The notes beneath the pieces are model-generated. The model saw only the letters and a program-made list of their open reading frames with translations. It was not told the origin of the DNA and searched no databases. A program made the translations under genes and the position numbers. Shown here in pieces: positions 1 through 28,582 of a stretch of 64,000 nucleotides of DNA (positions are counted from its first letter, which is position 1; every line of letters begins with the position of its first letter). The stretch is from a virus: IMG/VR virus record IMGVR_UViG_3300021495_000002, positions 1-64,000 of that record. One strand, given 5' to 3'.

Positions 1-1331
1 CGCTCATAGGCTGTAACTTCTGCTGCTAAGTCCCTGTTATAGAATCTGGATTTTTCATATCCTAACATCCCTACACAAGCGTTGAGCAAGAACTTGTAAG
101 ACACATTCCATATCTGACTCTGGGTGTCCCCTCTTTCTTTATATAGTTTTTTGAATTCAAGTCTTCTTTCAAATATTTCTTTGATTGTCTCTGTGAGGAT
201 TCCAGGATTTCTAATGTCTCTATCAGGAGATATATTGAAGTGCATAACTATCGAAGGATATAGACTGACCAAGTCTAAGACTGTGACGTCTCTGTGCAAG
301 CCTTTTTGTGGATCCCTGACAAGTGCTCCTTTATATTTCGTGTGTGACACCTGTCCCCTATTTGGGAGAACGTATTTATTGTGATAACGTTTTAAGAGAT
401 AGGCTTCGATAATACTACTACGATTCATTATATCAATGGTATTGAGGGGAACGAGATTTTGAAATGAAAAGACCAATTGTGACAATCTCAGTTTCTCATC
501 AATCTCCTTGGTCAAAGTCACATCCTCTATACAATGTAAGAGTTCTGGAAGGGATTTGTCTTTACGTCTCCCTAAAACAAGATAAGCAACATGATCTAAG
601 AAATATCTTCCTCCCCTCTCCCCAAATTCTCTATATGCTCTCATTAAATCGAGAGGTTGGCTTTCTCCTATGGTTAATTCATCATGATAACTATGAAATA
701 TCTTTCTTGTCCTCGAACGATTGAAGAGGTAGGGCAAGTCGTAGTTCGAGGAATTCCAACCTACTAACAAATCAAAATCTAATTTCTTACAGAATGAGAA
801 GAATGAATTCAGAAGTTGTTCATCATTCTTAAATATGAATGCTTTAACTCCATCTATCGCATAATCCTCCAATACGAATGGATAATGTCTGTTCGTGAAA
901 TTATCATAAGCATCAATCACGGTAATAGGGAGTGGAGCGTTCTCAGTATCAAGAGAACCATTCCCTCTCTCAACTTCTATATCAAAATAAAGAATCCTTC
1001 TATTGAGTCCGTATGTCAATCCTGAATCTATGAGGTAGCGAGTGAGGTATGGAATATCTGCTTCTGCACAAAAATCTACGTTTCTCTTTCCTTTTTCGAG
1101 ATCCTTTATTGAATTGAAAGAAATTTTATCTAAGGGTTCTCCAGTATAGGACTTGAATCCACTCTCTCTTTTCACAATTGGAAACGATGTGCTCTCATCG
1201 GGTCTGATGTAGAAATATGGATACTCTCCTTTTCTCACTGAGTAGGTGACACTCCAGCCATCTCTAAATTTGAGCTTAAGAGTTGGTCTTGAACTTCTTG
1301 AGCCAATAAGTGAAGCATTTACAAGTTCCAT
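1..1331 (-). CDS. polB: Family B DNA polymerase, N-terminal part (gene continues past the left edge)
   Basis: Own minus-strand translation; absent from the ORF track because there is no stop in the window. Starts MELVNASLIG from the ATG at 1331. Exo I ILYFDIEVERG (~965-1000), Exo II GWNSSNYDLPYLF (~725-765), pol motif A VLDLVSLYPSIV (~235-270), motif B-like YKFLLNACVGMLG (~65-105). Frame stays open down to nt 1. Confidence 0.9.
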   Translation of the reverse strand, partial: MELVNASLIGSRSSRPTLKLKFRDGWSVTYSVRKGEYPYFYIRPDESTSFPIVKRESGFKSYTGEPLDKISFNSIKDLEKGKRNVDFCAEADIPYLTRYLIDSGLTYGLNRRILYFDIEVERGNGSLDTENAPLPITVIDAYDNFTNRHYPFVLEDYAIDGVKAFIFKNDEQLLNSFFSFCKKLDFDLLVGWNSSNYDLPYLFNRSRTRKIFHSYHDELTIGESQPLDLMRAYREFGERGGRYFLDHVAYLVLGRRKDKSLPELLHCIEDVTLTKEIDEKLRLSQLVFSFQNLVPLNTIDIMNRSSIIEAYLLKRYHNKYVLPNRGQVSHTKYKGALVRDPQKGLHRDVTVLDLVSLYPSIVMHFNISPDRDIRNPGILTETIKEIFERRLEFKKLYKERGDTQSQIWNVSYKFLLNACVGMLGYEKSRFYNRDLAAEVTAYE

Positions 1332-2032
1332 TCCCAAAACTCCTCCAAACTTCTTTGATTCTTATCTCTACCCAAAACTCTTTCCTGTGTTATTTCACAA
1401 TATTTTTCTGATATTTCTATTGCAATCCATCTGCGATTGTATTTTTCACACGCTACCGCCGTTACGCCTGTGCCCCCGAATGGATCAAGGACAATTTCCC
1501 CTTCCTTAGGACTGCCACGGAGTAGTAACCTCTCCCAAAATTTAAGTGGCTTAGGGCAAGGGTGATCATACGATTGATTATCTAATCCTGTTGCTTCTAT
1601 GACGTCACTTCTCGCACCAAGTCCCTCTCTCAAATACGGATCTACTCCATACGCGAGAATAGGCTGCCATTGAGCAAATCCCCACTTACCTCTTGAGTTT
1701 GTTGTCTTGTATATCCATGCTAAAATCCAACGTGGAGGAGGATAGAGGGAAATATTAGTAAGACCACAGGTAAGTAACATGACTTTACTCACGCGTAAGG
1801 CTTGAGGCATGAATTCCTTTATAATAGATTTGAGATTTTCCTCAGTATCTTCGTAAGTATCATACTCCTTACCTAATGCGTAAGGAGGATCTGTCAATGT
1901 TAAATCGACGCTTTTATCGGGAAGAGTTTTCAAGATTTCGATGCAGTCTCCACAGAGCAATATTCCGTTGTCTGTGTGAAAATAATGATATTTGCTTTCG
2001 ATTAACTTCCTCTGCAATTCACGCCAATCCAT
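1319..2032 (-). CDS. DNA methyltransferase, N6-adenine/N4-cytosine class (DPPY)
   Basis: Catalytic motif LTDPPYALG near the N terminus and AdoMet motif VLDPFGGTGVTAVA near the C terminus. Confidence 0.85.
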   Translation of the reverse strand: MDWRELQRKLIESKYHYFHTDNGILLCGDCIEILKTLPDKSVDLTLTDPPYALGKEYDTYEDTEENLKSIIKEFMPQALRVSKVMLLTCGLTNISLYPPPRWILAWIYKTTNSRGKWGFAQWQPILAYGVDPYLREGLGARSDVIEATGLDNQSYDHPCPKPLKFWERLLLRGSPKEGEIVLDPFGGTGVTAVACEKYNRRWIAIEISEKYCEITQERVLGRDKNQRSLEEFWEWNL

Positions 2033-2033
2033 T

Positions 2034-3170
2034 TTAAAATCCTATTCTTTCGATTGTAGATGGTTTCTCGAATAGTTTTGTTTGTGCAACTACTGATTTC
2101 AATTCTTGATAAGCCATTTCACAATAGTCCCTGTTCAGATCTATTACAATACTGTTCCGTCCTAATTTTTCTGCCACTATTCCGACGGTTCCCCTTCCTC
2201 CGAAGGGATCGAGTATAGTATTGCCTGCTCGACTTCCAACTTTTATCAATGGAAATATAAGTTTCTCAGGAAACGTTGCAAAGTGCATACCCGAAAATGA
2301 AGAATGAGAAATTGACCAAACGTCACCAGGATTAGCACCTAACGGGTGAAGATTTACCACTAAATAATCTCCCTCCGCGTATTGATATTGAGATATTGCC
2401 ATATTTTGTTCTCTTTGATATTTCTTCGACTTATCGAGTAAGTCACTAAAGGTAACAGATACTTTTCGTTTTGCATTTGGTCTTGGCTTATTTATTCTAC
2501 CACCACCACCATACTCAGGGTGATTTGAGTATTTGTGTTTGTTGCTAACTGCTCTCAAGACTCTCTTCTTGCTTGTTTCTTTGTGAGGAACTCTTACTGT
2601 GTCTAAATCAAACCAGTAGTTTTTATTCTTCACTAACATAAATACAGGTTCATAAGTATTCGTAAATCTGTCTTTCACACTTTCAGGTTTGTGATTAGGT
2701 TTATACCAAATGATCACATTCCTCAGTATAAGCCCTAATTCATCTACACAACGAGCAATAAACCTGAAATTTTGAAGTGCCAAACATTTAGTTTTTACTT
2801 GACGTCCTTCGCTTCTCCTTCTCGGATTGCTCTCATAAGGCAAGTGATAGTTTTCTTTAGAGTTTAAGACTTCTGGCGGATTTTTCCACGCTCCTGCTCC
2901 ACTACCTCCGTAGCAGTCTCCGTGATTCCAAAAAATGACTCCCGTCTTCTTTAATACTCTTTTCAACTCCTGCATTACTTCTATAAGATGATCGAGATAT
3001 AAATCTAATGTTGGCTCTAATCCAATTTCTTTCTTTTTGTCTGAATGGTCATCTGGGAGATATGAGCGTAAACCCCAGTAGGGTGGCGAAGTGACAATAC
3101 AATCTACACACTCATCTGGCAACGTCTTTAGAACTTCAAGCGTGTCTCCACAAATTATCTTATGCCTCAT
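2034..3170 (-). CDS. DNA methyltransferase, N4-cytosine/N6-adenine class (SPPY)
   Basis: IVTSPPYWGLRSY catalytic motif and ILDPFGGRGTVGIVA AdoMet motif. Abuts the other methyltransferase gene. Confidence 0.85.
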   Translation of the reverse strand: MRHKIICGDTLEVLKTLPDECVDCIVTSPPYWGLRSYLPDDHSDKKKEIGLEPTLDLYLDHLIEVMQELKRVLKKTGVIFWNHGDCYGGSGAGAWKNPPEVLNSKENYHLPYESNPRRRSEGRQVKTKCLALQNFRFIARCVDELGLILRNVIIWYKPNHKPESVKDRFTNTYEPVFMLVKNKNYWFDLDTVRVPHKETSKKRVLRAVSNKHKYSNHPEYGGGGRINKPRPNAKRKVSVTFSDLLDKSKKYQREQNMAISQYQYAEGDYLVVNLHPLGANPGDVWSISHSSFSGMHFATFPEKLIFPLIKVGSRAGNTILDPFGGRGTVGIVAEKLGRNSIVIDLNRDYCEMAYQELKSVVAQTKLFEKPSTIERIGF

Positions 3171-10174: not shown

Positions 10175-10441
10175 TCATACTCTTTCTCCCAACATTAGGA
10201 GTAATCCTACTCCAAATTCCTTCAATTCTTCTAACGACTCGCTATTATGTTTTAAGATAGCTCCATTAAAATTCCAGATTTCCATCGTCTTCCACGATCT
10301 CCCGAAACGAGGAATGGTAGAAGCTTTATATAGGGAATGATTATACATCCAATACAGCTTACTGAAATCCTTCTCTGAGATAGACAACAAAAGACTTGCT
10401 CCTTTAGTAGAATAATTTCGAAAAAAGATTATAAGTTTCAA
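10175..10441 (-). CDS. Truncated member (88 aa) of the paralog-array family
   Basis: N terminus MKLIIFFRNY resembles MKLIPF/MRLIPFF of array members 1-2. C terminus GAILKHNSESLEELKEFGVGLLLML matches the family tail. TTG start with AGAGG upstream. Confidence 0.55.
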   Translation of the reverse strand: MKLIIFFRNYSTKGASLLLSISEKDFSKLYWMYNHSLYKASTIPRFGRSWKTMEIWNFNGAILKHNSESLEELKEFGVGLLLMLGERV

Positions 10442-10666
10442 TTTCCTCTATTTTTCCCATGATATAGTCGATCTTTTTCTTGAGCTTGACTTCGAAGACA
10501 ATATAGTAGGTATCGTTTTCGATAAAAGACACTAATTCTATTATTGACTTGATATATTTTTTTGGAAACTTGAACAAATGCCCGAATCTTACGATTGCAG
10601 TATTCTCTTCATTTTAGAAATCCCCACTACTTCAGCAGGAGTAGCTACCAGAAGCTCCTTCATTTC

Positions 10667-10918
10667 CTACGGCTCAATTTGTTCTGGTTCTCCCCATTCT
10701 GTTGCTGAAAATCCTTTCTCGCATTTTAGTCGTTTCAAAATAACCGTCACCATGTCTAAGAGTTGTTTTTCGCTTAAACAAGTATATTCTCGTCCAATGG
10801 TAAATTGGATACAGTGCCCGTATTTCCGTCCTCCCATGAAGGCTGTTAAGAGCAGGTCTTTACCACCTCTAAGATCTTTCTCATCAATTGATTCGTATAT
10901 CCTTATGTTTTTACTCAT
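10667..10918 (-). CDS. Hypothetical protein
   Basis: 83-aa ORF overlapping the end of the upstream gene by 8 nt. Confidence 0.5.
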   Translation of the reverse strand: MSKNIRIYESIDEKDLRGGKDLLLTAFMGGRKYGHCIQFTIGREYTCLSEKQLLDMVTVILKRLKCEKGFSATEWGEPEQIEP

Positions 10919-11138
10919 TTTTACATATCATCTTTCTTATTTCATCTAAGGATAGCTTGTTAAATTCGTCTTCACTCATGCCTTCTTTGTAGTGATAATA
11001 ATAAACCTCTGGGTATCTTTGATAAGCGGTCAACAAAACACTCTCTACAAAAGCTTTCTCTCCCTTCTTGATAGTGACACCACATGCTTCACACACGTGA
11101 TCCTTTCGTACTTTAACAACTCTAATTCGTCTGCTCAT
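10911..11138 (-). CDS. Small hypothetical protein with a CxxC pair
   Basis: 75 aa, contains HVCEACGVTIKKGEKA. Confidence 0.5.
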   Translation of the reverse strand: MSRRIRVVKVRKDHVCEACGVTIKKGEKAFVESVLLTAYQRYPEVYYYHYKEGMSEDEFNKLSLDEIRKMICKNE

Positions 11139-11166
11139 CTTTTTGCCACCTCCATTTATTTAGGAT

Positions 11167-11496
11167 TTATCTTCTTCTTTTTCCAAAGTTTGTAAATGGT
11201 GATGATACAATCGTTTTCATTGTTTCATCATCATTTCCATTGTAAGCTTTTATGAACTCTCGTTCTGCCGTTGCGTCTATCTTCCTCTGATGTGTTTCGC
11301 ATGGATTCCGTCCTTTTTCACACAACTCTTGGAACTCCTCCAAGGACAATTTACACTTTCTCTCCTTTGAGTCCCAAAATCTACATTCAATCGGGAAATC
11401 ACAACTCATTTTATATGTCCTCCTCAATCTTTGTTGAACTGATCTTGGAACACCAAAAATTTTGCCATGATTTGCACATATTTCATTCCTACGCAA
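11167..11496 (-). CDS. Cys-rich hypothetical protein
   Basis: 109 aa with 7 Cys residues (CANHG, CDFPIECRFW, CKLS, CEKGRNPCETH). Confidence 0.5.
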   Translation of the reverse strand: MRRNEICANHGKIFGVPRSVQQRLRRTYKMSCDFPIECRFWDSKERKCKLSLEEFQELCEKGRNPCETHQRKIDATAEREFIKAYNGNDDETMKTIVSSPFTNFGKRRR

Positions 11497-11572
11497 ATTT
11501 TTTCTTTAGTTCCAATATTTTCTATGAATTGGAACTTAAATTTTGTTATATCGCATTTATGTTGATCTGACA

Positions 11573-12052
11573 TTACATGAGGGAATCATAATCTGCTGGA
11601 GAGAGAAGACTCAACATCCCAACGCCTGTTTCGATGAGTTCCTCTTTCTTTTCGCCATCAGAAACCAAAATCACTCCTACAGTGAGAGGACTAATGCGCA
11701 TTTCTCCTTTCATTCCTCCTAAATAATAATTGGTAAGACAGGATAGATAAACGTACAATTTATAATCATAAGAGGTGACAAACTCAATCTCTTTGTTTAC
11801 ATGAACACGTATTTCTTGCAGATTAAGGGAAACTATTTCTTTCTCCAAATTGAGAAGCAAGAGGATATTCTCATTCCTTATGCTAAATCTTGAAGGAAAG
11901 GACTTGGTTTTTGGAGAAGAATACAGAGTATAGATTTTAGCTAAGAACTTCTCTGAGCGAGGAAGAGTAAGTCTGTTTAAAATTACCAATTTAGTACTGT
12001 CTTTCTCAAAGAAGAATTTAAGAGAATCCGAAACAAAGGGGATTAGTTTCAT
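11573..12052 (-). CDS. Paralog-array protein 1 (unknown family)
   Basis: 159 aa. MKLIPFVSDSLKFFF N terminus, as in member 2. Tail LTVGVILVSDGEKKEELIETGVGMLSLL. Confidence 0.7.
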   Translation of the reverse strand: MKLIPFVSDSLKFFFEKDSTKLVILNRLTLPRSEKFLAKIYTLYSSPKTKSFPSRFSIRNENILLLLNLEKEIVSLNLQEIRVHVNKEIEFVTSYDYKLYVYLSCLTNYYLGGMKGEMRISPLTVGVILVSDGEKKEELIETGVGMLSLLSPADYDSLM

Positions 12053-12053
12053 T

Positions 12054-12551
12054 TTACATATACTTTTGAAGAATTTCGTCAGGTGAATAAATGCTCAGCA
12101 TTCCGGTACCAACTTCGATGATCTCTTCTTCATTTTCATCCTCATCATAAAAGACGACCATTCCTGTTAGAGGAGGACTGATATGCAATTCCCCATTCCC
12201 CGCCTTATATAATTTATTATTATTAGTTATATTTATTATATTATTATATATTTTATTATTATACGTACTGTGTAGGACAAACTTTATTCTTTTTAAGGCA
12301 CATATCTTGGATACAGGAATAGAGACAATTGAGTAGTCTTTATTAAGAATCAACATGATCTTCTTATCCTCAATACAAAACGTTAAAGGAAGAGAGACAT
12401 TATTGATAGTCAACTTTCTTCTATAATAATAAACCCTTCCTAAAAATCTAAAGGAGTAAGGAAGATAGGTTTTATCGACAATCTCCAGTGAAGGACTATC
12501 TCTTGCAAAGAAGAACCTAAGTGATCTCGAAAAGAACGGTATTAATCTCAT
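12054..12551 (-). CDS. Paralog-array protein 2
   Basis: 165 aa. MRLIPFFSRSLRFFF; tail LTGMVVFYDEDENEEEIIEVGTGMLSIY. Contains an Asn/Ile low-complexity insert. Confidence 0.7.
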   Translation of the reverse strand: MRLIPFFSRSLRFFFARDSPSLEIVDKTYLPYSFRFLGRVYYYRRKLTINNVSLPLTFCIEDKKIMLILNKDYSIVSIPVSKICALKRIKFVLHSTYNNKIYNNIINITNNNKLYKAGNGELHISPPLTGMVVFYDEDENEEEIIEVGTGMLSIYSPDEILQKYM

Positions 12552-12615
12552 TTATTTGTTCTCCATCACAAACTCGTGCACCTTTCGTCTTATCTCCTTC
12601 CAACTTTCTCCAGAT

Positions 12616-13134
12616 CTATTCATCTCTTCCTGAAAGAGTCAAGTATGAAACTGCTAATTCATACACTTCTCTTTCATTCTTTATCTCACTACTCGAATAG
12701 ACCAATATCAATCCTTTTAGAGGATAAGTTTGTGTGAAGTCATAAAGGTACGGATATTTCCAATTTTCAAACGGGGAAAGGGTTAGTATTAAATAACGAG
12801 TGATATCAACGTAGCTTGGAGGAAAATTGTTATGCGCAGAAGTCGAATGAGGATTGACAACATAATAAACGTTCTCTGGAAATCCTTTTAGTGATGATGA
12901 ATATTCTGCATTAACAACGTTTCTAAACTCAAAGCTATGAAGATGAAATGGCACATATCTTCCTTTCAAGATGAAGATACACGCAGCTCGTTTATCTTTA
13001 TCGATTAAACCAATTGGCAGTTCGGGATCGGACTGATCCAATTCAAACTTAAATTGAAGACGCTGGGATGAAAAATCGAGGGATATATCGGTAGTAATCT
13101 CTTTCAATACGCCATTAATTTTATAGGCTTCCAT
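12616..13134 (-). CDS. Paralog-array protein 3
   Basis: 172 aa. Tail LKGLILVYSSSEIKNEREVYELAVSYLTL. Confidence 0.65.
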   Translation of the reverse strand: MEAYKINGVLKEITTDISLDFSSQRLQFKFELDQSDPELPIGLIDKDKRAACIFILKGRYVPFHLHSFEFRNVVNAEYSSSLKGFPENVYYVVNPHSTSAHNNFPPSYVDITRYLILTLSPFENWKYPYLYDFTQTYPLKGLILVYSSSEIKNEREVYELAVSYLTLSGRDE

Positions 13135-13138
13135 TGTA

Positions 13139-13591
13139 TTACCTCACAATGGTTAAATAGGCTATTCCTAAGTTGATCAGATCCTCTTCAATCTCTTCTT
13201 CACAACTCAAAACTATTCCTTCGAATCCCCATAGCGAGAAAAGTCCTTTGATTTCAAGATCTTTATAGTTTAGAGGGGATCTGATCACTAATTCTTCTAT
13301 CAATCTACTATACTCTTCAAATTGTTTCTTTTGGAGTGGTGAAAATTCGATCCAGATGCTATACGGAAAGTGTGCAATTCCATTATGTTTGAAGCGTATA
13401 GAAGTTATTTTTCCTATTAATACTTTTTCGTTTGATAATGTAAATATTAGATAAGAGGGGACGGGTTGAGAAAGCATGTCTCTTAATTGTCTAAGGAAAG
13501 CTCTTGACACACTCCAATTTATCGAGAACGTTTGTTTTGAATCATCCTTTCTCACTAAGACTCTAAATTCTGAAATTCGTAGAATATTCAT
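13139..13591 (-). CDS. Paralog-array protein 4
   Basis: 150 aa. Tail FEGIVLSCEEEIEEDLINLGIAYLTIVR. Confidence 0.7.
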   Translation of the reverse strand: MNILRISEFRVLVRKDDSKQTFSINWSVSRAFLRQLRDMLSQPVPSYLIFTLSNEKVLIGKITSIRFKHNGIAHFPYSIWIEFSPLQKKQFEEYSRLIEELVIRSPLNYKDLEIKGLFSLWGFEGIVLSCEEEIEEDLINLGIAYLTIVR

Positions 13592-14094
13592 ATTAAGACT
13601 CCTCCATCAAGAAATAGATAAGCTGATCCGATTTCTTTTATCTCGTTAGGATTTGCTTTTTTGTGAGACTTTAAAACTAATCCACATACGTGCCAAAACT
13701 GTTGCTTATTAAGAATGTTCTCCATTTCCGTATAGTCTATGACGTCTAACATAGAACACTTTAGGTTTATTAAGTAATACTCTTTTGATGATACTCTTGT
13801 CCATACATCTTCAAGACGGCACAAATAGAAACTGTGTGTAGAAGGTACCGCGAAGGGATGTATTAAAGAAAATAGAAAATAATGAAGGTATTTCTTGTTA
13901 TTGAGATCACTACTTATATCTAAGAGAGTTTCAAATTCACTCTTAGAGAGGATTGGTACATCAAAAGAAATTTCTTGTTTCCAAAACTTTCCTGTTTCTA
14001 CTAAAGCACTCCAGCCTTTCTTTGTTCGAAACTCGAAGACTACTTCTATTTTCCCCCTTTCTTTTTCTTTTTCTTTCTTAAAAATGTTAAACAT
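13588..14094 (-). CDS. Paralog-array protein 5
   Basis: 168 aa. Tail VCGLVLKSHKKANPNEIKEIGSAYLFL. 4-nt overlap with member 4. Confidence 0.7.
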   Translation of the reverse strand: MFNIFKKEKEKERGKIEVVFEFRTKKGWSALVETGKFWKQEISFDVPILSKSEFETLLDISSDLNNKKYLHYFLFSLIHPFAVPSTHSFYLCRLEDVWTRVSSKEYYLINLKCSMLDVIDYTEMENILNKQQFWHVCGLVLKSHKKANPNEIKEIGSAYLFLDGGVLI

Positions 14095-14106
14095 ACTAAT
14101 TGAGAG

Positions 14107-14718
14107 TTATTCAAGATTTTCTTTGAGTCTTTTAAGCACAATTTGTTTTCCTAATCTTCGAGCATACACATAGAGTTCTGAAGTCTTTACTTTCTCATCT
14201 TGTAATCCCTCTTTTATACACTCTAAGCCTCCGCAATACTGGGGTTTATCAAGGCAATCAATTAGAGTCTTTTCTCGATTGGTAATCCATATTCTCGTTT
14301 CGTTTATGAAGCCACTCTGTAAGCCAAACATTTCATTTGTGTGAATAATCCAAAAATCTAATCCAAGTAGCTTGAGTTTCTTGCCCCTCTTCGGGGTTTG
14401 AATGAATACTGTATTCGGGATTTGACTGGTTAGACCCCAATAGCTCAGAGCGCTCCAATAAGCTATCGCATAAGGCTGAACAATCGAAGACGCTAAAATG
14501 TATTCATGTTCAGTATACTTCCCTTTCTCTGCACCCAAAGGAATTATCATGTACTTACCTCTATAAATTCGTTCTATCCATCCTGCTTTCTCAAGCTCTT
14601 GAAGGAACCTCACTATTTTCTTTCTGTTTCTCGACTCATCAAGTTCGACTGCATCTTCGATCGAAAAGACGGTTTTGTTACTTCTGACTAATTCATCTAA
14701 TAATTTAATTCTTTTCAT
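14107..14718 (-). CDS. AbiEi-family (COG5340-like) antitoxin / wHTH transcriptional regulator
   Basis: N-terminal wHTH FSIEDAVEL...IVRFLQELEKAGWIERIYRGKYMIIP. Then YAIAYWSALSYWGLTSQIPNTVFIQT, WITNREKTLIDCLDKPQYCGG and YARRLGKQIVLKRL, which follow the AbiEi domain pattern. Confidence 0.7.
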   Translation of the reverse strand: MKRIKLLDELVRSNKTVFSIEDAVELDESRNRKKIVRFLQELEKAGWIERIYRGKYMIIPLGAEKGKYTEHEYILASSIVQPYAIAYWSALSYWGLTSQIPNTVFIQTPKRGKKLKLLGLDFWIIHTNEMFGLQSGFINETRIWITNREKTLIDCLDKPQYCGGLECIKEGLQDEKVKTSELYVYARRLGKQIVLKRLKENLE

Positions 14719-15124
14719 TTAAAACTAAATAGGTGTATCCCAAACTCTTAGCGTCTTCGGGGTTGGTCCCTTGGAGGATTATTCCGTGTACTGTTTCCCA
14801 TAGTATTCCTTCCCATAGACCAAGGAGTCTTTCCATTATTTTATATTCGTTTTGGTTTAAAATAGTTCCTTCCAAGTCTGCTGTGAGTAGTGTTTTCTTC
14901 CTCCTTACTATGTGAATATCATCCAAGTGACAAATAAAAAGGTGAACATCTCCTCTTCTTATGTTAAATATGAGATAGTAAATAGATTTTTTAAGTTTTC
15001 TTTTTATCTTCCAGAGTAAATCTCTTTCTGTTTGGCTTATTACGATAGTTATTGCTACTCCCCGAATTTTATTTCTGTTTAAGCCTACTTCCCCATCGAA
15101 TCTTACGAACTCAAATTCGATCAT
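14705..15124 (-). CDS. Paralog-array protein 6
   Basis: 139 aa. Tail VHGIILQGTNPEDAKSLGYTYLVL. Overlaps the AbiEi-like gene by 14 nt. Confidence 0.7.
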   Translation of the reverse strand: MIEFEFVRFDGEVGLNRNKIRGVAITIVISQTERDLLWKIKRKLKKSIYYLIFNIRRGDVHLFICHLDDIHIVRRKKTLLTADLEGTILNQNEYKIMERLLGLWEGILWETVHGIILQGTNPEDAKSLGYTYLVLNEKN

Positions 15125-15672
15125 ATCTTGTTATCCTCATTTAGGAGTAGATAAGCACACCCCAAATTTTTAATGTCTTCAAGGTTATCTTCTTCTGTCT
15201 TAAGTAGCAATCCTTTCAGGTCCCACGCTTCAACCTTCCATTCTCTTCTGTGATTCCGAGAAGTTTCGGCTATACCAAACGCTGACTGCGACATCGTAGC
15301 AGCCATCACCTCTTCCATGTAATTGCAACCTGAAAAGTAAATCGAACGCATTGATTTAGTCAGGTCCTCATGTTCTTTTTCTTCCATCTCAAGTGTTAAC
15401 TCGATGATTGCTAATGGATCCAATACGGAAGATCTTGGTTGAGATAATATTTCTCCCCTTATCAATCTTCCAACGAAACAGGCATTGTTAAAAAGAAAGA
15501 TCAAGTGGTAAGTATCGACACCAGACGTAATTTCATTTATTACGTTCATTGTATTACACAGAAATTTGCTGTTGTACTTGTGAATAAAAAATGACACATT
15601 AAGATAGCTCGTCTTCTCTTTTATGTATGATTTTAGTAACGTCCTCCAAGAGGATATAAATAAAGAGTTCAT
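15121..15672 (-). CDS. Paralog-array protein 7
   Basis: 183 aa. Tail LKGLLLKTEEDNLEDIKNLGCAYLLL. 4-nt overlap with member 6. Confidence 0.7.
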   Translation of the reverse strand: MNSLFISSWRTLLKSYIKEKTSYLNVSFFIHKYNSKFLCNTMNVINEITSGVDTYHLIFLFNNACFVGRLIRGEILSQPRSSVLDPLAIIELTLEMEEKEHEDLTKSMRSIYFSGCNYMEEVMAATMSQSAFGIAETSRNHRREWKVEAWDLKGLLLKTEEDNLEDIKNLGCAYLLLNEDNKI

Positions 15673-15713
15673 TTTTCAAGCCCTTTCCCAGTAATGTGTA
15701 TCAATTATCTCAT

Positions 15714-16256
15714 TCATTTCAGGTAAGTAATATAGCCCATCATGAGTCTTTTAATGTCTTCTAACGTTTCATCCTCCTTTTTCTTGATGACTATGCCCAT
15801 GAATGAGAACGTGTTCGATCGCATCCATCCTTTCTGAATTCTTCGTGTGATTGAATCCCACCACTTTCCCATTGCAGTAGCTTCAGAGGAAAAGAAATAT
15901 GAAGAGGCGGTAAATTTGAACATTGCAAGTAATCTCATAAATTTGTCTCGGTCACAAGACACGAGGAACAATCTTATAATAGCATCGTCCTCGTCAGGAT
16001 ATACTTTACACATTTGAAGAGAAGAACTTAGTATTTGAAAGAGTAAGATATGATTTTTAAATCCGTCTGAGATTTCAAGACATAAATACGCATCTGCTGA
16101 AGATTTACTGAGACCTTTAATTTTTTTTATTGTTTCTGGATCAAAAGTCGGGAATGTCAATTCAACATAATTCGGGACACGCTTATCAACGAGGAACACT
16201 GCCGTGGCTGTCTTTATGAGAATTATATCATTGTTTATTGACTCAATCGTTTTCAT
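15714..16256 (-). CDS. Paralog-array protein 8
   Basis: 180 aa. GKWWDSITRRIQKGWMRSNTFSFMGIVIKKKEDETLEDIKRLMMGYITY, closely parallel to member 9. Confidence 0.7.
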   Translation of the reverse strand: MKTIESINNDIILIKTATAVFLVDKRVPNYVELTFPTFDPETIKKIKGLSKSSADAYLCLEISDGFKNHILLFQILSSSLQMCKVYPDEDDAIIRLFLVSCDRDKFMRLLAMFKFTASSYFFSSEATAMGKWWDSITRRIQKGWMRSNTFSFMGIVIKKKEDETLEDIKRLMMGYITYLK

Positions 16257-16786
16257 AAGCAGGTGAGGTATCCTAATCCTAATCTTCTTAAGTCCTCTAA
16301 AGTTTCACTTTGTTTCCTTCTAATGATTACCGCTTCAAAAGGAAAAATGCTCGATCTCACCCATCCTTTTTTAATCTTATATGATATCAATTCCCACCAC
16401 TTGCCGGTGGAAGTCACTGGTGAGAATAAAGGACTTGAGATAGAAAAGGGGAAACTCTTAATCAATTTAGTGAAATCACTGTCATCAAGTGGACTAAGAT
16501 AAAATCTGACTATGGAATCATCCGTATTGGGATTTATTTCTAAGGGTTGAAGAGTAAAATCTTCTATTTTAAAGAGAAAGTTTAATTTATCACCTCTCGG
16601 ATCTTGAAATGCAGAACTCAAATACAAATCTGAGAAGTTTGAGACACTAAGCAAATTTCTTAATTGGTGAATAGTATTTGGATCATTGCACGGAAAACTC
16701 AGATCTATATAGTCCCTAAAGTGTTCATTGACAAGGAAAAGTGCAACAGAGTTACTCATCTGAATCACGTCCATTTCCTTTGGCAT
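16253..16786 (-). CDS. Paralog-array protein 9
   Basis: 177 aa. GKWWELISYKIKKGWVRSSIFPFEAVIIRRKQSETLEDLRRLGLGYLTC. Confidence 0.7.
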   Translation of the reverse strand: MPKEMDVIQMSNSVALFLVNEHFRDYIDLSFPCNDPNTIHQLRNLLSVSNFSDLYLSSAFQDPRGDKLNFLFKIEDFTLQPLEINPNTDDSIVRFYLSPLDDSDFTKLIKSFPFSISSPLFSPVTSTGKWWELISYKIKKGWVRSSIFPFEAVIIRRKQSETLEDLRRLGLGYLTCL

Positions 16787-16831
16787 CGTTTCAGTTTTTT
16801 TTCTTTTTAAATACGTGACGGTGAAATTACA

Positions 16832-18070
16832 TTATTCTTCTCTTCCTCTTCCCCCATCGTAAAACACTACTCTTCCAAACGGAAGTTTCTGATGTCTGTC
16901 TCTAAGACTGTCCGGAACCAGCCAAATCACTGGAAAATTTGGCACGCTATTTGGAGACGTGCCATACGTGTCCGTAATGTATATCAAGCCCCTAAGCTCT
17001 GGATATTTTTCAATTTCTTTAAAGACTGGTCTGAAGTCCGTGCCCCCTCCTCCTTTCCACTCAATCTCATCGAGTTCTTCGGGACTGTGTATCCAGTGTT
17101 TTACCTGAACCTTAGCATCACATTGAAGCAGTAATACATTCAGGTCCCCCTTGAAATATGAGAACAGGAACTGCATACCTGCCTTGAATTCAGAAAGTAG
17201 TTCAGTATCTATTGAGCCACTTGTATCAATGGCTACACATATCTGAAGTCTGTTCCTTCCTTTGATTTGGGGATATAGCAACGGCGGATATCGCCTTTTG
17301 TGTAATCTTTTCCAATTCCGTTTACTATAACTTCTTTCAAGTACAAAAGAAGATATAATTTCACTGATTGGAAGAGGAGGATGAAGTATGTTTAACACTT
17401 CTCTTTTTAAAGAGGCTGGTAACGTACCCTGCATGAAAGAACGTAGAAGGGACTGTCTTATCGTCCGTCCTAATGCGTCATTCTCCTTGCTGTGTTTCCA
17501 TATTTTGTGACCTTGAAGACGCTTTTTCCCTTCAGTATTTTTGCCCCTGCTATTTTCTTCCCCTTGTCCACTTTTAGGTTCTGATTGTCCTCCACTTGCA
17601 GACTGTCCACACTGGGATTGTTCTCCAATACCTTGAAAATTCTTCATGAGTTCTCTATACACTTGCTCAAACGTCTTGCTTGTATATTTTTCATCGAATA
17701 GAAAAGAAGACGGCAAATATCCAAACTCCTCTTTAATTATAGCGTTGGTAACATAATCCGCTGCCATATTTGCTATTTCCCATTCTACGTCATTGGTTGC
17801 AATCCTTAGTCTTAAATCCCATATATGAGATAGAAGTATGTGAAGATACTCATGGGCTAAGTCAAATGTGAGATCACTTGGAGAAATTCTATCAAGATAA
17901 TCTTCGTTCAAGTAGAAGGTCTTTCCATCAGTGGCTGCTACTTCAATTGGCACTCCTTTAAATTCTTTGCCTATCTCCACTGGCACGGTGAGCACTCCAG
18001 ACCAAAATGGCTTCTTCTGTAAGAACATGAATTTTGCTCGTCTTATCTTCTTGAGACGGTTTTCGTTCAT
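16832..18070 (-). CDS. Predicted metallopeptidase (DUF2201-like) fused to a von Willebrand A domain
   Basis: HExxH (DLAHEYLHILLSH) in the N-terminal half. MIDAS motif ICVAIDTSGSID in the C-terminal half. G/S/Q-rich linker between the halves. Confidence 0.75.
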   Translation of the reverse strand: MNENRLKKIRRAKFMFLQKKPFWSGVLTVPVEIGKEFKGVPIEVAATDGKTFYLNEDYLDRISPSDLTFDLAHEYLHILLSHIWDLRLRIATNDVEWEIANMAADYVTNAIIKEEFGYLPSSFLFDEKYTSKTFEQVYRELMKNFQGIGEQSQCGQSASGGQSEPKSGQGEENSRGKNTEGKKRLQGHKIWKHSKENDALGRTIRQSLLRSFMQGTLPASLKREVLNILHPPLPISEIISSFVLERSYSKRNWKRLHKRRYPPLLYPQIKGRNRLQICVAIDTSGSIDTELLSEFKAGMQFLFSYFKGDLNVLLLQCDAKVQVKHWIHSPEELDEIEWKGGGGTDFRPVFKEIEKYPELRGLIYITDTYGTSPNSVPNFPVIWLVPDSLRDRHQKLPFGRVVFYDGGRGREE

Positions 18071-18597: not shown

Positions 18598-18810
18598 TCA
18601 CGCTATTTCTTCTTCTTCTTCTTCTTCTTCTTCTTCTTCTTCTTCTTCAGTATTTTCACATTCTGTTTTCCCGTCCATGTCCATAAGCAGAGTTCCTGTG
18701 ACTATAAGCATCATGCCAAGAGCAAGAGGAAATTCTGTATCAAAGTACTGAATTGATAGAACAATTCCCCAAGCCAATAAGGCTCTACCCATACACTGAA
18801 AGAATGTCAT
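18598..18810 (-). CDS. Small two-TM membrane protein with a poly-Glu tail
   Basis: 70 aa with two hydrophobic helices followed by ENT(E)14IA. 4-nt overlap with the MoxR gene. Confidence 0.55.
   Translation of the reverse strand: MTFFQCMGRALLAWGIVLSIQYFDTEFPLALGMMLIVTGTLLMDMDGKTECENTEEEEEEEEEEEEEEIA
18607..18648 (-). repeat. (GAA)14 trinucleotide microsatellite, seen as (TTC)14 on the plus strand
   Basis: Perfect 42-nt ttc repeat read directly from the sequence. Encodes the 14-Glu run. Confidence 0.95.
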
Positions 18811-19874
18811 TCTCCACTCAGTAATGGTAGTATTTCTCTGCCTATGTTCTTCATCAATTCTCTAAAGTTTTCATCACTGAGCATCTTTGAGAACATTTCA
18901 CTCGGCATTGCATTCTTATAGTCTACGAGGAACGCCGCTGCTCCTTCCACGAATCCTCCGTATGCTGGATCACTACCCTTTTCCCAAACGGCTCGTACGT
19001 ATTTGAAATATGCCTTCGAGTAGCTCATTTGCTTCTTCGAATTCTTCTCTCTACTTATCACGGAAAGAAGAGTTTGTATTGTATAGGTCAGGACGTCAAA
19101 TTCACTCGGTATATCACTGACGTCTCCTTTCAATATCTTTTGAATGTCTGGAAGTTTATCTCTTAAATCTGTGAAGGCTAAGAACTTGGCTGCTACTGAA
19201 CCTCCGATCGAACCAGAGAGATCTTCGATGCTTGACAGTCCTTGTTCTAAGAGAAGAGATACTCGTTCCCATCCTCTTCCACAAGTCACTTTCTCTCCCC
19301 TGTGCTCTGGTAGTATGTAAAGGTCTTCGGGATGAGCACTCAAGTAGGCTATAATCTCTGGAGCGATGTGATTTTTCAATGCCCACGCTTTCCACACTTG
19401 TATGTCGGGCTCTACGTAGATCTCATGAAGACGTGCTTCGAGTGGTATCTCAAGATCCCCAACGACTGCTCCATGTTCTCTCTTGTTCCCCGTTCCACAT
19501 GGGACTATCCCATCTGGTAGTGGTGTATCCCCGATCATTCTGTCATAGAATACACGGTACAGTGCTTTCTGCATTTCATTGGAAGCATGATTCAATTCAT
19601 CGAACAACAAGAATCCTCGTGCGTTGTCTTCATACTTTGCCCACTCTGGTGGTAATTGAAGCACCAATCCAGAACTTGGATCTGGTACTGTCCATCCTTC
19701 CAAGTCTGGAGGCTCAAGAGTCAGCAACGACTTAGAGACACACAATACTCCCATCTCTTGAGCGACTTCCCTTATTATGGAACTCTTCCCTACTCCAGTT
19801 GGACCCCAAAGAATAAAGGGAATTCGCTTTTCGTATAATTTCTTAATCCTTTCTTTAGTTTCTCTTAAGTTCAT
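18807..19874 (-). CDS. MoxR-like AAA+ ATPase
   Basis: Walker A ILWGPTGVGKSSI, Walker B GFLLFDELNHA. Size and single AAA module are typical of MoxR/CbbQ-type ATPases. Paired with the VWA gene downstream. Confidence 0.8.
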   Translation of the reverse strand: MNLRETKERIKKLYEKRIPFILWGPTGVGKSSIIREVAQEMGVLCVSKSLLTLEPPDLEGWTVPDPSSGLVLQLPPEWAKYEDNARGFLLFDELNHASNEMQKALYRVFYDRMIGDTPLPDGIVPCGTGNKREHGAVVGDLEIPLEARLHEIYVEPDIQVWKAWALKNHIAPEIIAYLSAHPEDLYILPEHRGEKVTCGRGWERVSLLLEQGLSSIEDLSGSIGGSVAAKFLAFTDLRDKLPDIQKILKGDVSDIPSEFDVLTYTIQTLLSVISREKNSKKQMSYSKAYFKYVRAVWEKGSDPAYGGFVEGAAAFLVDYKNAMPSEMFSKMLSDENFRELMKNIGREILPLLSGE

Positions 19875-25803: not shown

Positions 25804-26333
25804 TTACTTCCATGATTGCTTTAGAAATTTATACCTTATTCGTTTTAGTTGTTTTGCACTCAGCTCTTGGACTGCGATTTGATTCTCAATAAGATATTTA
25901 GTAATCTTTTTATATATTTCAAGGTTTAAAGATTTTAATTTATCAATATCTCGTCTGGAAATGTGGAACTTAGCTTGTATTTCTTTCGTGTTCGGATTGA
26001 AAAAGGGATTATCGTCCATGATAATAGTTAGACTTCCTGCTATTTCATCTCTTAGGTCTTCAAGAATATCTCTATCAGGAAATAAATCCAGTAAGGCAGT
26101 GCAGAGATAAATACTACAAGGCAATCTTCTTCCCTCGTTCCTAAAACATGCGTTTCACCAAAAGAACATAATCCACAACAGTATCCTCTACATATCTCCT
26201 CACAATACTCGCGTATCCCCGAATCTATCATAAAGTCTTCGACTACTTCCAGTGCCTCTTTATACGTGTACTCGTCCTTCATATTTATCACCAATCTATA
26301 TATCCCTTTTATAATATATAAACATAAAACCAA
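25804..26333 (-). CDS. Cys-rich protein apparently split over two frames (frameshift, sequencing error, or two overlapping genes)
   Basis: ORF 26052-26333 reads sensibly to ...CCGLCSFGETHVLGTREEDC, then turns into hydrophobic junk. The -1 frame is open from ~26155 and continues PCSIYLCTALLDLFPDRD... to 25804. Confidence 0.35.
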
Positions 26334-26476
26334 TCTTTTATATATAAATGAATCTTAACATTTTGAGACTCTCGCCACTCCTCAATCTTATAATAATATA
26401 ATATATAAATATATAAAAATAAAGAGAGAAAAAGGAAGGGGACTAAACGTCCTATATTCAATCAATCAATCTAAGC

Positions 26477-26764
26477 TTATATGTAGGCTCTTAGGCTTGT
26501 GTCCGGTTCTACCTGATCCCAGTAGTCCGGATTAAGATATCCGAAGAAGTCAAACTCTGTGCCCCACTCTCTGCATGTCTTGCCGGCGTGTATTTTCCCG
26601 TTCTCATCTTCGATGGGTCTCAATCGTTTGTTGCTTCTGATCCTATAGACTTTACCTTGTGTATCTTTGACCAAAAAACTCTTTCCTTTAATCCCCAAAT
26701 ATAAGACCACATCGTTTACCTTTGTGTCTTTTAGAGTCTGTAGTAAGCAATACACGGTTATCAC
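26477..26764 (-). CDS. Hypothetical protein; first gene of the minus-strand arm
   Basis: 95-aa ORF with GGAGGTGA immediately upstream of the ATG on the minus strand. Confidence 0.55.
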   Translation of the reverse strand: MITVYCLLQTLKDTKVNDVVLYLGIKGKSFLVKDTQGKVYRIRSNKRLRPIEDENGKIHAGKTCREWGTEFDFFGYLNPDYWDQVEPDTSLRAYI

Positions 26765-27613
26765 CTCCTATTTATCCTCGATGGATTAGAGGAATATCAA
26801 TCTAAATTTGATCGGTGCACCCGTGAGGACTTCCATCCTCAAACGGATGCACCAATCTATTTAGGCAGTGGGGCAGGAGCAAAGGAGGGGCTATTAAAGA
26901 GAAGCGTAAATTTTTCATCCGCTTATGTTTGCATCAATCTAAAATGAATAGTAGAATCTCAACCTCTTTCCTCTTTTGCGTTCCCTTCTTCTCTCTATTA
27001 GAGAGAAGAATAAATAAACAAATAAAGGTATAAAGCATAAGATAAACAGAACAACATAATAGATTATAATCAAAGACATGTTAAACATTTTGATTCTCAC
27101 CTACCATATTCTTCATGTATGCAATTTTTATTCTCATGGGTATATTATTATATCCCCTTCATTGGATATTTTGTTATATCTCATCATTTTGTCTCTCATG
27201 TGATTTTTCCCTCACCCTATCCCACCACATTTTGAGTATGTGAGTGGTGAATTACAAAAACCCTAAATTTGTCACACACCGTAACACAAAGATACCGGTT
27301 GGTGTTAAGCTTTATGTTGTTGTGAAGGATTCCTGGATGTGTGTCACTTCTTCATAAAGATGGCTCAGGATAACACATGTTCATACACAATTGGTATGAA
27401 TTCACATCACATTTTTATGCCGATCAACATACTTCTTGATTGGCTGGTAACACGGGTTATGTTTGCCCCAGCTTGCCCTCTTACAAAATGCTAAAATGCA
27501 CACATGTGGACATGATATTTGAATTTTTCTTTAAGGGTTCATGAAGATTTTTTGTTATGAAAAATAGGGTTAAATAGGGGCTTAAACATAGGGTTAATTG
27601 GTGATAAAGAAAA
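26765..27613. promoter_or_regulatory. Noncoding divergence hub between the minus-strand and plus-strand arms (divergent promoters; possible origin)
   Basis: About 850 nt without a credible ORF. All genes to the left are minus, all to the right plus. Contains CAATCTA[AT] repeats (26798, 26853, 26943), a hairpin at 26821-26846 and a perfect palindrome at 26986-27010. Confidence 0.6.
26986..27010. repeat. Perfect 11-bp inverted repeat with a 3-nt spacer
   Basis: ttcttctctct-att-agagagaagaa, read directly from the sequence. Confidence 0.9.
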
Positions 27614-28582
27614 ATGAATAAAAAAACATCACCAAAGGAAAAACCGGTTAAGGAGAGTAGCGAATCCTTAACACATAAAGAGAAGAACGCTAAAGAAGAG
27701 ATGGAGAAGAAGGAAGAAATAAAGAAGGAGGAAAAAGAGGAAAAAGAGGAAACAAGAGATAGGTACGTCATACAATACAATAAGACAACAGAGGAAGACA
27801 ATTATGAAACATTGAGGAAAGAAGGAAAGGTATACGTAACAAGCAATAAAGATAAAGCACAAGAGATAGCGGAGAAGCTTCTAAGTAAACACGTGGATTT
27901 AACGATGGTAAGGATATGCAGAGTGTCCAACAATATCCTTATACCCGAAGTAGAATTAACGGGTAAGGATATTGTAATGAAAAACAAGGAAGTGTTGCCC
28001 AAAGAAATGCGAGGAGTAATTAGCGAGGACATGCTACAATACATGGATGACTCAGAAATATCTTCTATCCGCAATTTGATAGCTGAATACATGAGGAAGA
28101 AACAAGAGATAGAAACATTTAGTAGGCTTGCAGTGCAAAGATCAGCTTTTCGACGAGATAAAGAAATGGTGAAGAAGCTTGAGGAGATAAAACATAATTA
28201 TCAAGCTTCTAAACAGACGTACGAAGACGCGAAGAAGATATGGGAAGAAGCTAAAAAGGAAACAGAAGAGTTCATAGAAGAATGCGAAAAGAAGTTTCCA
28301 TCAATTGGTCGATGGCTCCGCGTGGAGATCACCGGCACGGGGAGGACAGTAAGAAGAACATCGGGAAGGACACGCACAACGGGGGGCAAAAGGGAGATAA
28401 TCCTAAAGTTCCTCCGGGAACATAAGGGGGAAAGATTCAAGGAAAGCGAGATAAGAAGGAAGCTTCAAGAGATAAACAAAGAATATTCATGGACTCAGCA
28501 GTCAACTTGGAATCCCCTTAAATCCTTGAGAGAAGAGGGGATAATCAGTCAAGACGATAAGGGAAGATATTATCTTCCCTAA
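27614..28582 (+). CDS. K/E-rich protein with a C-terminal winged-helix DNA-binding domain
   Basis: 322 aa. C terminus KREIILKFLREHKGERFKESEIRRKLQE...WNPLKSLREEGIISQDDKGRYYL has a MarR/wHTH-like pattern. First gene of the plus-strand arm. Confidence 0.55.
   Translation: MNKKTSPKEKPVKESSESLTHKEKNAKEEMEKKEEIKKEEKEEKEETRDRYVIQYNKTTEEDNYETLRKEGKVYVTSNKDKAQEIAEKLLSKHVDLTMVRICRVSNNILIPEVELTGKDIVMKNKEVLPKEMRGVISEDMLQYMDDSEISSIRNLIAEYMRKKQEIETFSRLAVQRSAFRRDKEMVKKLEEIKHNYQASKQTYEDAKKIWEEAKKETEEFIEECEKKFPSIGRWLRVEITGTGRTVRRTSGRTRTTGGKREIILKFLREHKGERFKESEIRRKLQEINKEYSWTQQSTWNPLKSLREEGIISQDDKGRYYLP

Follow-up and report, generated by a model that had tools for sequence, protein, structure and literature searches.

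Background

Viral multigene families residing in variable genome regions are exemplified by the MGF110, MGF360 and MGF505 families of African swine fever virus (ASFV) and by the AcrID1-type families located at the genome ends of rudiviruses and lipothrixviruses. They consist of tandem, co-oriented small paralogs whose copy number varies among related viruses, they undergo recombination-driven gain, loss and decay and diverge faster than core genes, and their non-enzymatic products are suspected or shown to target host immunity. Here we describe an array that shares these characteristics, a function of this kind being the one we infer for it. It is composed of ten related minus-strand genes, nine intact (m1 to m9) and one decayed (m0), at positions 10175-16786 of a window of 64,000 nucleotides (the whole stretch of DNA analysed) corresponding to positions 1 to 64,000 of the IMG/VR virus record IMGVR_UViG_3300021495_000002. 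We conclude with high confidence that these genes form a genuine, undescribed and lineage-restricted multigene family with one predicted fold, lodged in a recombination-prone accessory slot. The family is new; the phenomenon itself, rapid evolution of a tandem multigene family in a variable part of a viral genome, is known. The likeness to the ASFV and AcrID1-type families does not extend to sequence or fold, and the host is an uncultured methanotrophic archaeon. Moreover, these families lie at genome termini, whereas the present array is internal and occupies a fixed slot after a gene encoding a metallopeptidase with a von Willebrand factor A (VWA) domain.

Two other types of systems can be compared with this locus. 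The acr-aca anti-defence islands are also clusters of small orphan proteins with a patchy presence and contain an embedded helix-turn-helix (HTH) gene, represented here by an AbiEi gene with an N-terminal winged helix; this solitary antitoxin gene could plausibly be a counter-defence gene itself. However, such islands usually hold unrelated genes, whereas the array is made of paralogs (5 to at least 15), its HTH gene is absent from four related contigs, and no known Acr family matches. In the MoxR AAA+/VWA pairs RavA-ViaA, CbbQ-CbbO and NorQ-NorD, an acidic residue of the client serves as ligand of the VWA domain. Similarly, an AAA+ gene adjoins here a VWA protein with an intact metal ion-dependent adhesion site (MIDAS), and the adjacent family displays a conserved acidic loop. 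In contrast to these pairs, the VWA domain is fused to an HExxH metallopeptidase domain (DUF2201 type), and where the known pairs serve one defined client, the hypothetical partner would here be a variable array.

ANME-1 archaea consume much of the methane of marine sediments, and their viruses, nearly all genes of which are orphans, were described only in 2023. The window belongs to one of them, Methanophagales virus GBV302, two of the array proteins being identical to its FHOMOCKG_00030 and FHOMOCKG_00022. GBV302 (Ekchuahviridae, Kukulkanvirus mexicoense) is a head-tailed virus of ANME-1 archaea with an 80.7-kb genome, retrieved from Guaymas Basin metagenomes; its genome paper reports the two capsid genes along with an “enzymatic arm” that is variable and carries multigene insertions, and mentions neither the paralog family nor MoxR, VWA or AbiE (PMC9894754). 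No other gene expansion in the window, or in the related contigs that were inspected, is as large as this array. The family is confined to one virus family, with a gene-by-gene turnover between close relatives, and provides an expressible (~160 aa) candidate set of archaeal anti-defence or host-takeover proteins in a system devoid of genetic tools. It also raises the testable question of whether the widespread phage AAA+/DUF2201 module works with variable small partners.

Results and discussion

Composition of the array and evidence for a single family

Reading of the open reading frames (ORFs) and their alignment bear out the ten minus-strand genes, with their coordinates and related C-terminal tails, that a sequence-only reading of the window had reported. 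Seven sub-types, A to G, were defined with the help of metagenome orthologues. The first gene of the array, m9 (16253-16786, 177 aa; B-type hidden Markov model (HMM) 286 bits), and its paralog m8 (15714-16256, 180 aa, 39% identity) constitute sub-type B. They are followed by m7 (15121-15672, 183 aa; C-type HMM 378 bits), the sole window member of sub-type C, by m6 (14705-15124, 139 aa; D-type HMM 194 bits) and m5 (13588-14094, 168 aa; D-type HMM 243 bits) of sub-type D, by m4 (13139-13591, 150 aa; E-type HMM 327 bits) of sub-type E, by m3 (12616-13134, 172 aa; F-type HMM 341 bits) of sub-type F, the weakest-linked member, and by m2 (12054-12551, 165 aa) and m1 (11573-12052, 159 aa) of sub-type A. 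The alignment contains the N-terminal motif previously noticed in m1 and m2 as well as the GKWW...KGW motif of m8 and m9, and 4-nt overlaps between consecutive genes are found as described at 13588-13591, 15121-15124 and 16253-16256. The nine intact genes had been presented as consecutive; their order and strand hold, but the AbiEi gene (14107-14718) interrupts the series between m6 and m5. The tenth element, sub-type G, had been regarded as a truncated copy of 88 aa. This short ORF does exist (10175-10441) but is in reality part of a decayed chimeric copy, m0 (10175-10577), which also comprises a 57-aa N-terminal piece in another frame (10404-10577) and lies beyond three small genes from m1. 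Both pieces match the G-type HMM, and the G copies of the relatives are full-length, with 164-174 aa.

The background for the HMMs was the set of six-frame ORFs of at least 50 aa over the whole window (n = 254), in which the family and sub-family HMMs match only the ten genes and the 57-aa m0 fragment. Direct BLASTP comparisons are strong for three pairs, m8-m9 (E 7e-44), m1-m2 (E 7e-11) and m5-m6 (E 2e-7, over 119 aa), and the remaining pairs align solely across their final 25-45 residues. When profiles including orthologues from other contigs are compared, sub-types B, C, D and E are each linked to G with hhalign probabilities of 94-97.5% (C-G 95.7%, E-G 95%, D-G 93.7% over 112 columns); these links span 58-157 columns, therefore far more than the tail is shared, and the paralogy assumed at the outset extends beyond this short segment, with weak links for F only. 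A bridging sub-type, X1, present in related contigs and not in the window, matches A at 92% and D at 94%. The links of F are weak but consistent and in register (P ~6e-4 to 1e-3), and among the 254 ORFs m3 ranks first outside the training set for an HMM from which A and F were left out (E 0.0023).

The array might alternatively combine more than one family, sub-types A and F being unrelated to the others and having acquired the strand/acidic-loop/helix ending by convergence. Such a view draws on the direct profile comparisons of A and F with the other sub-types, which are weak (probability at most 29%, best P 6e-4, mostly over 25-30 columns of the tail), and on a chance look-alike of the strand-acidic-helix segment that ends a PAS domain in an unrelated histidine kinase. 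We consider it very unlikely, and mainly a concern for m3. The bridge formed by X1 between A and D argues against a split origin, HMMs built in leave-out mode place each other's members at or near the top of the 254 window ORFs with the C-terminus always in register, and the models of m2 (A) and m9 (B) display an identical order of strands and helices over their full length. Size, strand and position in the array are all consistent with one family, although for F alone the doubt stays real. With at least three homologous genes on one strand, a variable content and conserved flanks, the locus presents the attributes of a viral tandem multigene family.

Protein features, predicted fold and database searches

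No match of the members to Pfam, PHROGs, NCBIfam or PADLOC rose above noise, and the family HMM had no match among all PDB sequences, in agreement with the initial description of the family as one that cannot be assigned to any described group. An exhaustive HMMER search over 1.84 billion representative proteins retrieved 32 matches at E <1e-3, all of them short proteins (70-196 aa) except one spurious multi-PAS kinase, and an ekchuahvirus-like gene order was found in every inspected contig of these 32 representatives. A scan of metagenomes yielded only further ekchuahvirus-like array fragments, a word-indexed search with a larger alignment revealed no further relatives, and none of 50,697 phage records, a collection that lacks OP880253, matched the region by megablast.

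Structures were predicted with AlphaFold2 (AF2) for m2 and m9, chosen as representatives of the two most distant sub-types, A and B. According to the predicted local distance difference test (pLDDT) and the predicted template modelling score (pTM), both models are confident (m2, pLDDT 92.7, pTM 0.89; m9, mean pLDDT 89.4, pTM 0.86). They share the same order of elements, three strands and a helix, again three strands and a helix, then two or three strands and a helix, and m9 has one additional helix exactly at the GKWW...KGW insertion. Foldseek searches of m2 and m9 against PDB and of m2 against BFVD identified no credible relative (best E 0.015-0.05, TM-score at most 0.38). By comparison with PDB and BFVD, the fold of this new protein family may itself be new.

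Across 37 sequences, one Gly and one Leu only are near-invariant, leaving no candidate catalytic residue. The conservation over the whole family is limited to the last strand, the acidic loop and the C-terminal hydrophobic helix (G-h-h-L ... E-x-x-E-[DE] ... h-G-x-x-Y-L-x-h), and in orthologue comparisons conservation is higher in the final 40 residues than elsewhere (86% vs 80%, Fisher p 1e-4). The members are near neutral, with isoelectric points (pI) of 5.4-9.5 and net charges of -5 to +4, and are not strongly hydrophobic (grand average of hydropathy, GRAVY, ~0). On the basis of the models and of these properties, we read the family as small (~140-185 aa), soluble, non-enzymatic alpha/beta proteins with a probable binding or scaffold role.

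Several more specific affiliations were considered and rejected. A relationship with PAS domains, suggested by the multi-PAS histidine kinase (E 8e-5), is contradicted by an hhalign P of 0.38 and by the lack of PAS domains among the listed top 50 Foldseek matches. A DNA-mimic anti-restriction protein of the Ocr/ArdA type is excluded by the charge and pI given above. An internal triplication of a strand-strand-strand-helix unit is a topological impression only, with no sequence signal among the three units.

The A-type proteins (m1, m2 and their full-length relatives) possess an additional C-terminal helix, and all full-length A-type examples retrieved end with [Y/F/L]-Met (QKYM, KEFM, DSLM). 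Such conservation at the very end of the protein is suggestive of a docking motif, albeit not of the canonical HbYX motif of proteasome binding, the preceding residue being polar.

A fixed slot with a variable gene content

Seven contigs include the upstream context of the array: the window, L001, L009, L011 (IMG/VR 3300021472_000001, 71.9 kb, a sister species), L012, L018 and L019. In all seven, the next gene after that of the DUF2201 metallopeptidase-VWA protein is the first of the array, and the two usually overlap at the stop codon; in L001, L011, L012 and L018, the first array gene overlaps the end of the DUF2201 gene, and in GBV302 they are separated by a 45-nt gap (16787-16831, minus strand), where a TATA-like box, TATTTAAAAA, precedes the m9 ATG by ~27 nt. 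Downstream, the relatives share the same small cysteine-rich genes, followed by genes of replication and recombination, namely a protein of 298 aa (DHH-like motif recognized in the sequence, no Pfam match), a RadA-like ATPase, an ERCC4 nuclease and DNA methyltransferases. In the window, the small genes are three (10667-11496, minus strand; 109, 75 and 83 aa, the first two cysteine-rich) and lie between m1 and m0; they are 98-100% identical in L001 and are not family members by HMM.

Between these conserved borders, the number of copies is 5 in both L012 and L018, approximately 6-8 in L011, where some are split, 10 in the window, 14 in L001 and at least 15 in the incomplete contig L003. The sequence-only reading had asked whether the copy number varies, and such a variation is thus substantiated. 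Split or truncated copies are numerous across the contigs, and distinct sub-types persist as orthologous groups from one contig to another. In the nucleotide alignment of the window with L001, the differences fall at gene borders: L001 has two additional copies directly after the DUF2201 gene and an additional X1 copy between m3 and m2, and m1 has no L001 orthologue, its slot being taken by a different A-type copy. At m0, a 426-bp deletion distinguishes the window from L001 (11086-11825), ~100 bp of tail-coding sequence being common to both sides, which suggests an unequal crossover of two adjacent G-type copies that left a frame-shifted chimeric m0.

No direct repeat longer than 28 nt was detected among the array paralogs. 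Without such repeats at the DNA level, the duplications are taken to be old, and a recent duplication or a repeat-mediated shuffling of DNA was rejected.

Rates of evolution

The array proteins are 64-97% identical to those of L001, vs 95-100% for eight of the nine comparable flanking genes (the ninth, g143, 69%). In comparison with L011 the array proteins drop to 24-42% identity, vs 50-88% for most of the matched flanks (27-42% for a few), which corroborates the rapid divergence initially proposed. Individual genes contrast with each other: the m9 orthologues in L001 and L009 are 92% identical, whereas the L001 orthologue of m8 is just 64% identical. The synonymous divergence (dS) between neighbouring genes differs up to tenfold or more, from 0.09 for m2 to 0.87 for m8 vs L001 and from 0.01 for m4 to 0.31 for m7 vs L009, and this unevenness among adjacent genes indicates a mosaic recombination among co-circulating ekchuahviruses.

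Ratios of nonsynonymous to synonymous divergence (dN/dS) were calculated pairwise over whole genes by the Nei-Gojobori method (NG86) with 2-4 orthologues per group. They range from 0.12 to 0.33 in the array, with a single value of 0.69 against a truncated copy, vs 0.03-0.17 in most of the flanks and ~0.3 in two small flanking genes. The array thus evolves faster than most of its flanks, yet under (relaxed) purifying selection, and the positive selection expected from an arms race, for which dN/dS had been put forward as a check, did not emerge from these gene-wide values.

These rates bear on a rather unlikely explanation, in which the array would be cargo that the virus can largely do without: an old duplicated family, loosely constrained and drifting in an insertion hotspot prone to recombination, with a single redundant housekeeping role. 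With similarly low probability, this role could be, for instance, early gene regulation or an accessory function in replication, with no diversified target recognition. The many split or truncated copies, a dN/dS moderately raised and never above 1, and the related viruses that get by with 5 copies are in line with cargo, and multigene insertions are described as a general feature of the enzymatic arm (PMC9894754). However, in several lineages the intact copies are maintained by purifying selection (dN/dS 0.12-0.33), distinct sub-types have been kept as orthologous groups in different contigs and the predicted folds are well packed and confident; redundancy moreover leaves unexplained the persistence of seven or more divergent sub-types.

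An orphan antitoxin gene within the array

The gene inserted between m6 and m5 (14107-14718, minus strand, 203 aa) is not a member of the family. Its product is recognized as AbiEi by PADLOC (E 3.7e-58, residues 2-198 matched) and by Pfam (AbiEi_4, E 3e-6). An AbiE type IV toxin-antitoxin pair was not found: both neighbours of AbiEi are array members, there is no adjacent AbiEii gene and no nucleotidyltransferase was identified among ten other ORFs of the minus arm that were scanned. AbiEi is consequently an orphan antitoxin, and such a solitary, virus-borne AbiEi could plausibly counter the AbiE abortive-infection systems of the host. The gene is present in the window, L009, L003 and L026, absent from L011, L012 and L018 and precisely absent from L001; its insertion in four contigs and absence from others indicate that the locus acquires accessory and counter-defence genes.

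The upstream AAA+/DUF2201 module

The array is preceded on the same strand by a gene encoding a protein with metallopeptidase and VWA-like domains (16832-18070; DUF2201_N and DUF2201, Pfam E 1e-21 and 4e-17) and by that of a MoxR-like AAA+ ATPase (18807-19874; Pfam AAA E 1.4e-5, AAA_5 E 1.4e-3, below cut-off). The DUF2201 protein retains an HExxH motif (H73-E-Y-L-H77) and a DxSxS MIDAS (D282-T-S-G-S286), both invariant among its relatives in the alignment. The neighbouring MoxR and VWA genes announced by the sequence-only reading are thereby recovered with intact metallopeptidase-VWA motifs, the MoxR-type Pfam signal itself being weak.

Phages encoding a DUF2201 homologue account for 539 records, N4-like, rV5-like and jumbo phages among them. 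Eight of the corresponding gene contexts were inspected, and in each of them the homologue has an ATPase gene as its neighbour; this gene is annotated as MoxR-like in nACB1 and S-TIM54, and the pair is located just upstream of a helicase or DNA polymerase gene in LUZ7, nACB1 and RHph_TM27B. Neither the array family nor a comparable array occurs in the eight contexts, five of which have no adjacent paralogs; since the module is found in so many phage records and the family in none of these eight contexts, the module does not need the array. In the three others, unrelated small tandem paralogs adjoin the module, downstream of it in Thermus phage phiFa (L014 6282-9999) and between the ATPase and DUF2201 genes in Planktothrix phage Pag-Yong1 (L017 5879-6905) and Bacillus phage G (L021 6792-7443). 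Base rate aside, this recurrence of the module with small tandem paralogs may be a lead or a coincidence.

The family could serve the upstream AAA+ ATPase and metallopeptidase-VWA protein as a set of exchangeable adaptors or clients, with the acidic loop and C-terminal helix docking on the MIDAS, a proposal that we hold as tentative and fairly improbable; each variable body would then, no more probably, bring a different target for remodelling or cleavage. Its mechanistic appeal lies in the joint presence of a MIDAS and a conserved acidic loop. An AAA+ ATPase and a VWA protein with intact MIDAS and HExxH motifs are indeed adjacent, the array immediately follows the DUF2201 gene in seven of seven contigs, mostly with overlapping stop and start codons, the sole element conserved over the whole family includes an acidic stretch, and the paralogs of the three phages fit the same picture. 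Nevertheless, the linkage with VWA is known from one virus family, so that the adjacency supposed from the beginning stands in all seven contigs but may reflect inherited synteny only. In the eight phage contexts, no co-occurrence of the module with the candidate clients was seen beyond one syntenic lineage, none carrying this family and most lacking any adjacent paralogs. Furthermore, the GBV302 array has its own TATA-like box, and the G-type copies are ~1 kb off, past unrelated genes.

An elaborate form of this proposal, which we judge distinctly unlikely, is that of swappable targeting adaptors whose acidic handle would dock on the MIDAS and whose body would recruit a host (defence) protein to be unfolded by the AAA+ ATPase and cleaved. 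If true, it would provide an archaeal-virus analogue of the eukaryotic viruses that redirect ubiquitin ligases through variable adaptors, and the same logic would have arisen independently with the tandem paralogs of phiFa, Pag-Yong1 and phage G.

Other small genes are associated with the module. A 70-aa ORF located between the AAA+ and DUF2201 genes (18598-18810, minus strand) is hydrophobic in its N-terminal half and carries a stretch of ~17 glutamates in its C-terminal part, and its counterparts in L001, L011 and L012 are 59-89% identical over 44 aa. Small genes are also found between the ATPase and DUF2201 genes in LUZ7, RHph_TM27B, Pag-Yong1, nACB1 and phage G. In Pag-Yong1, a gene located two genes downstream of DUF2201 (L017 9049-10089) was annotated by the depositors as the anti-CRISPR AcrVA2.

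Potential function of the array

The reading that we favour, with about an even chance of being correct, is that the array constitutes a portfolio of non-enzymatic binders of variable host factors, host defences being the leading candidate. It draws together the lack of catalytic residues, the conserved core or handle combined with variable bodies, the turnover of genes, the sub-types maintained under purifying selection and the embedded antitoxin. The island lies in the non-structural (“enzymatic”) arm of ekchuahviruses, in the interval between the conserved AAA+/metallopeptidase-VWA module and the replication/recombination genes, and it changes through the gain, loss or replacement of whole genes, through unequal crossover of neighbouring copies and through copy decay. 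The conserved C-terminal unit may act as a folding core or as a common docking handle, while the variable surfaces of the first two-thirds of the proteins would bind differing partners. The members would most likely bind or inhibit variable host factors stoichiometrically, and the virus would carry a set of specificities turning over as hosts change. The arms-race or anti-defence component of this reading is plausible and receives some support from the orphan AbiEi of the array; no match to known inhibitors was obtained in PADLOC, Pfam, PHROGs or PDB.

Four points weigh on the other side. The gene-wide dN/dS values are below 1 and give no signal of positive selection. In the absence of similarity at the DNA level, the family is old and does not result from a recent burst of duplication. 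The invariant slot after the VWA-metallopeptidase gene, with often overlapping stop and start codons, would fit a tie to the upstream machine equally well. Finally, a high AF2 confidence obtained from 36-37 sequences does not prove the novelty of the fold.

Other features of the window

Two adjacent ORFs of N6/N4 DNA methyltransferases are located at 1319-3170 on the minus strand, and the corresponding region differs in L011 and L018. One of them, of 237 aa, aligns with no more than the C-terminal end of the Pfam model and may be split or truncated. At ~26000-28000, the cumulative GC skew reaches its minimum and the ORFs of at least 120 aa flip from mostly minus to mostly plus strand; this position may correspond to a replication origin or terminus between two genome arms.

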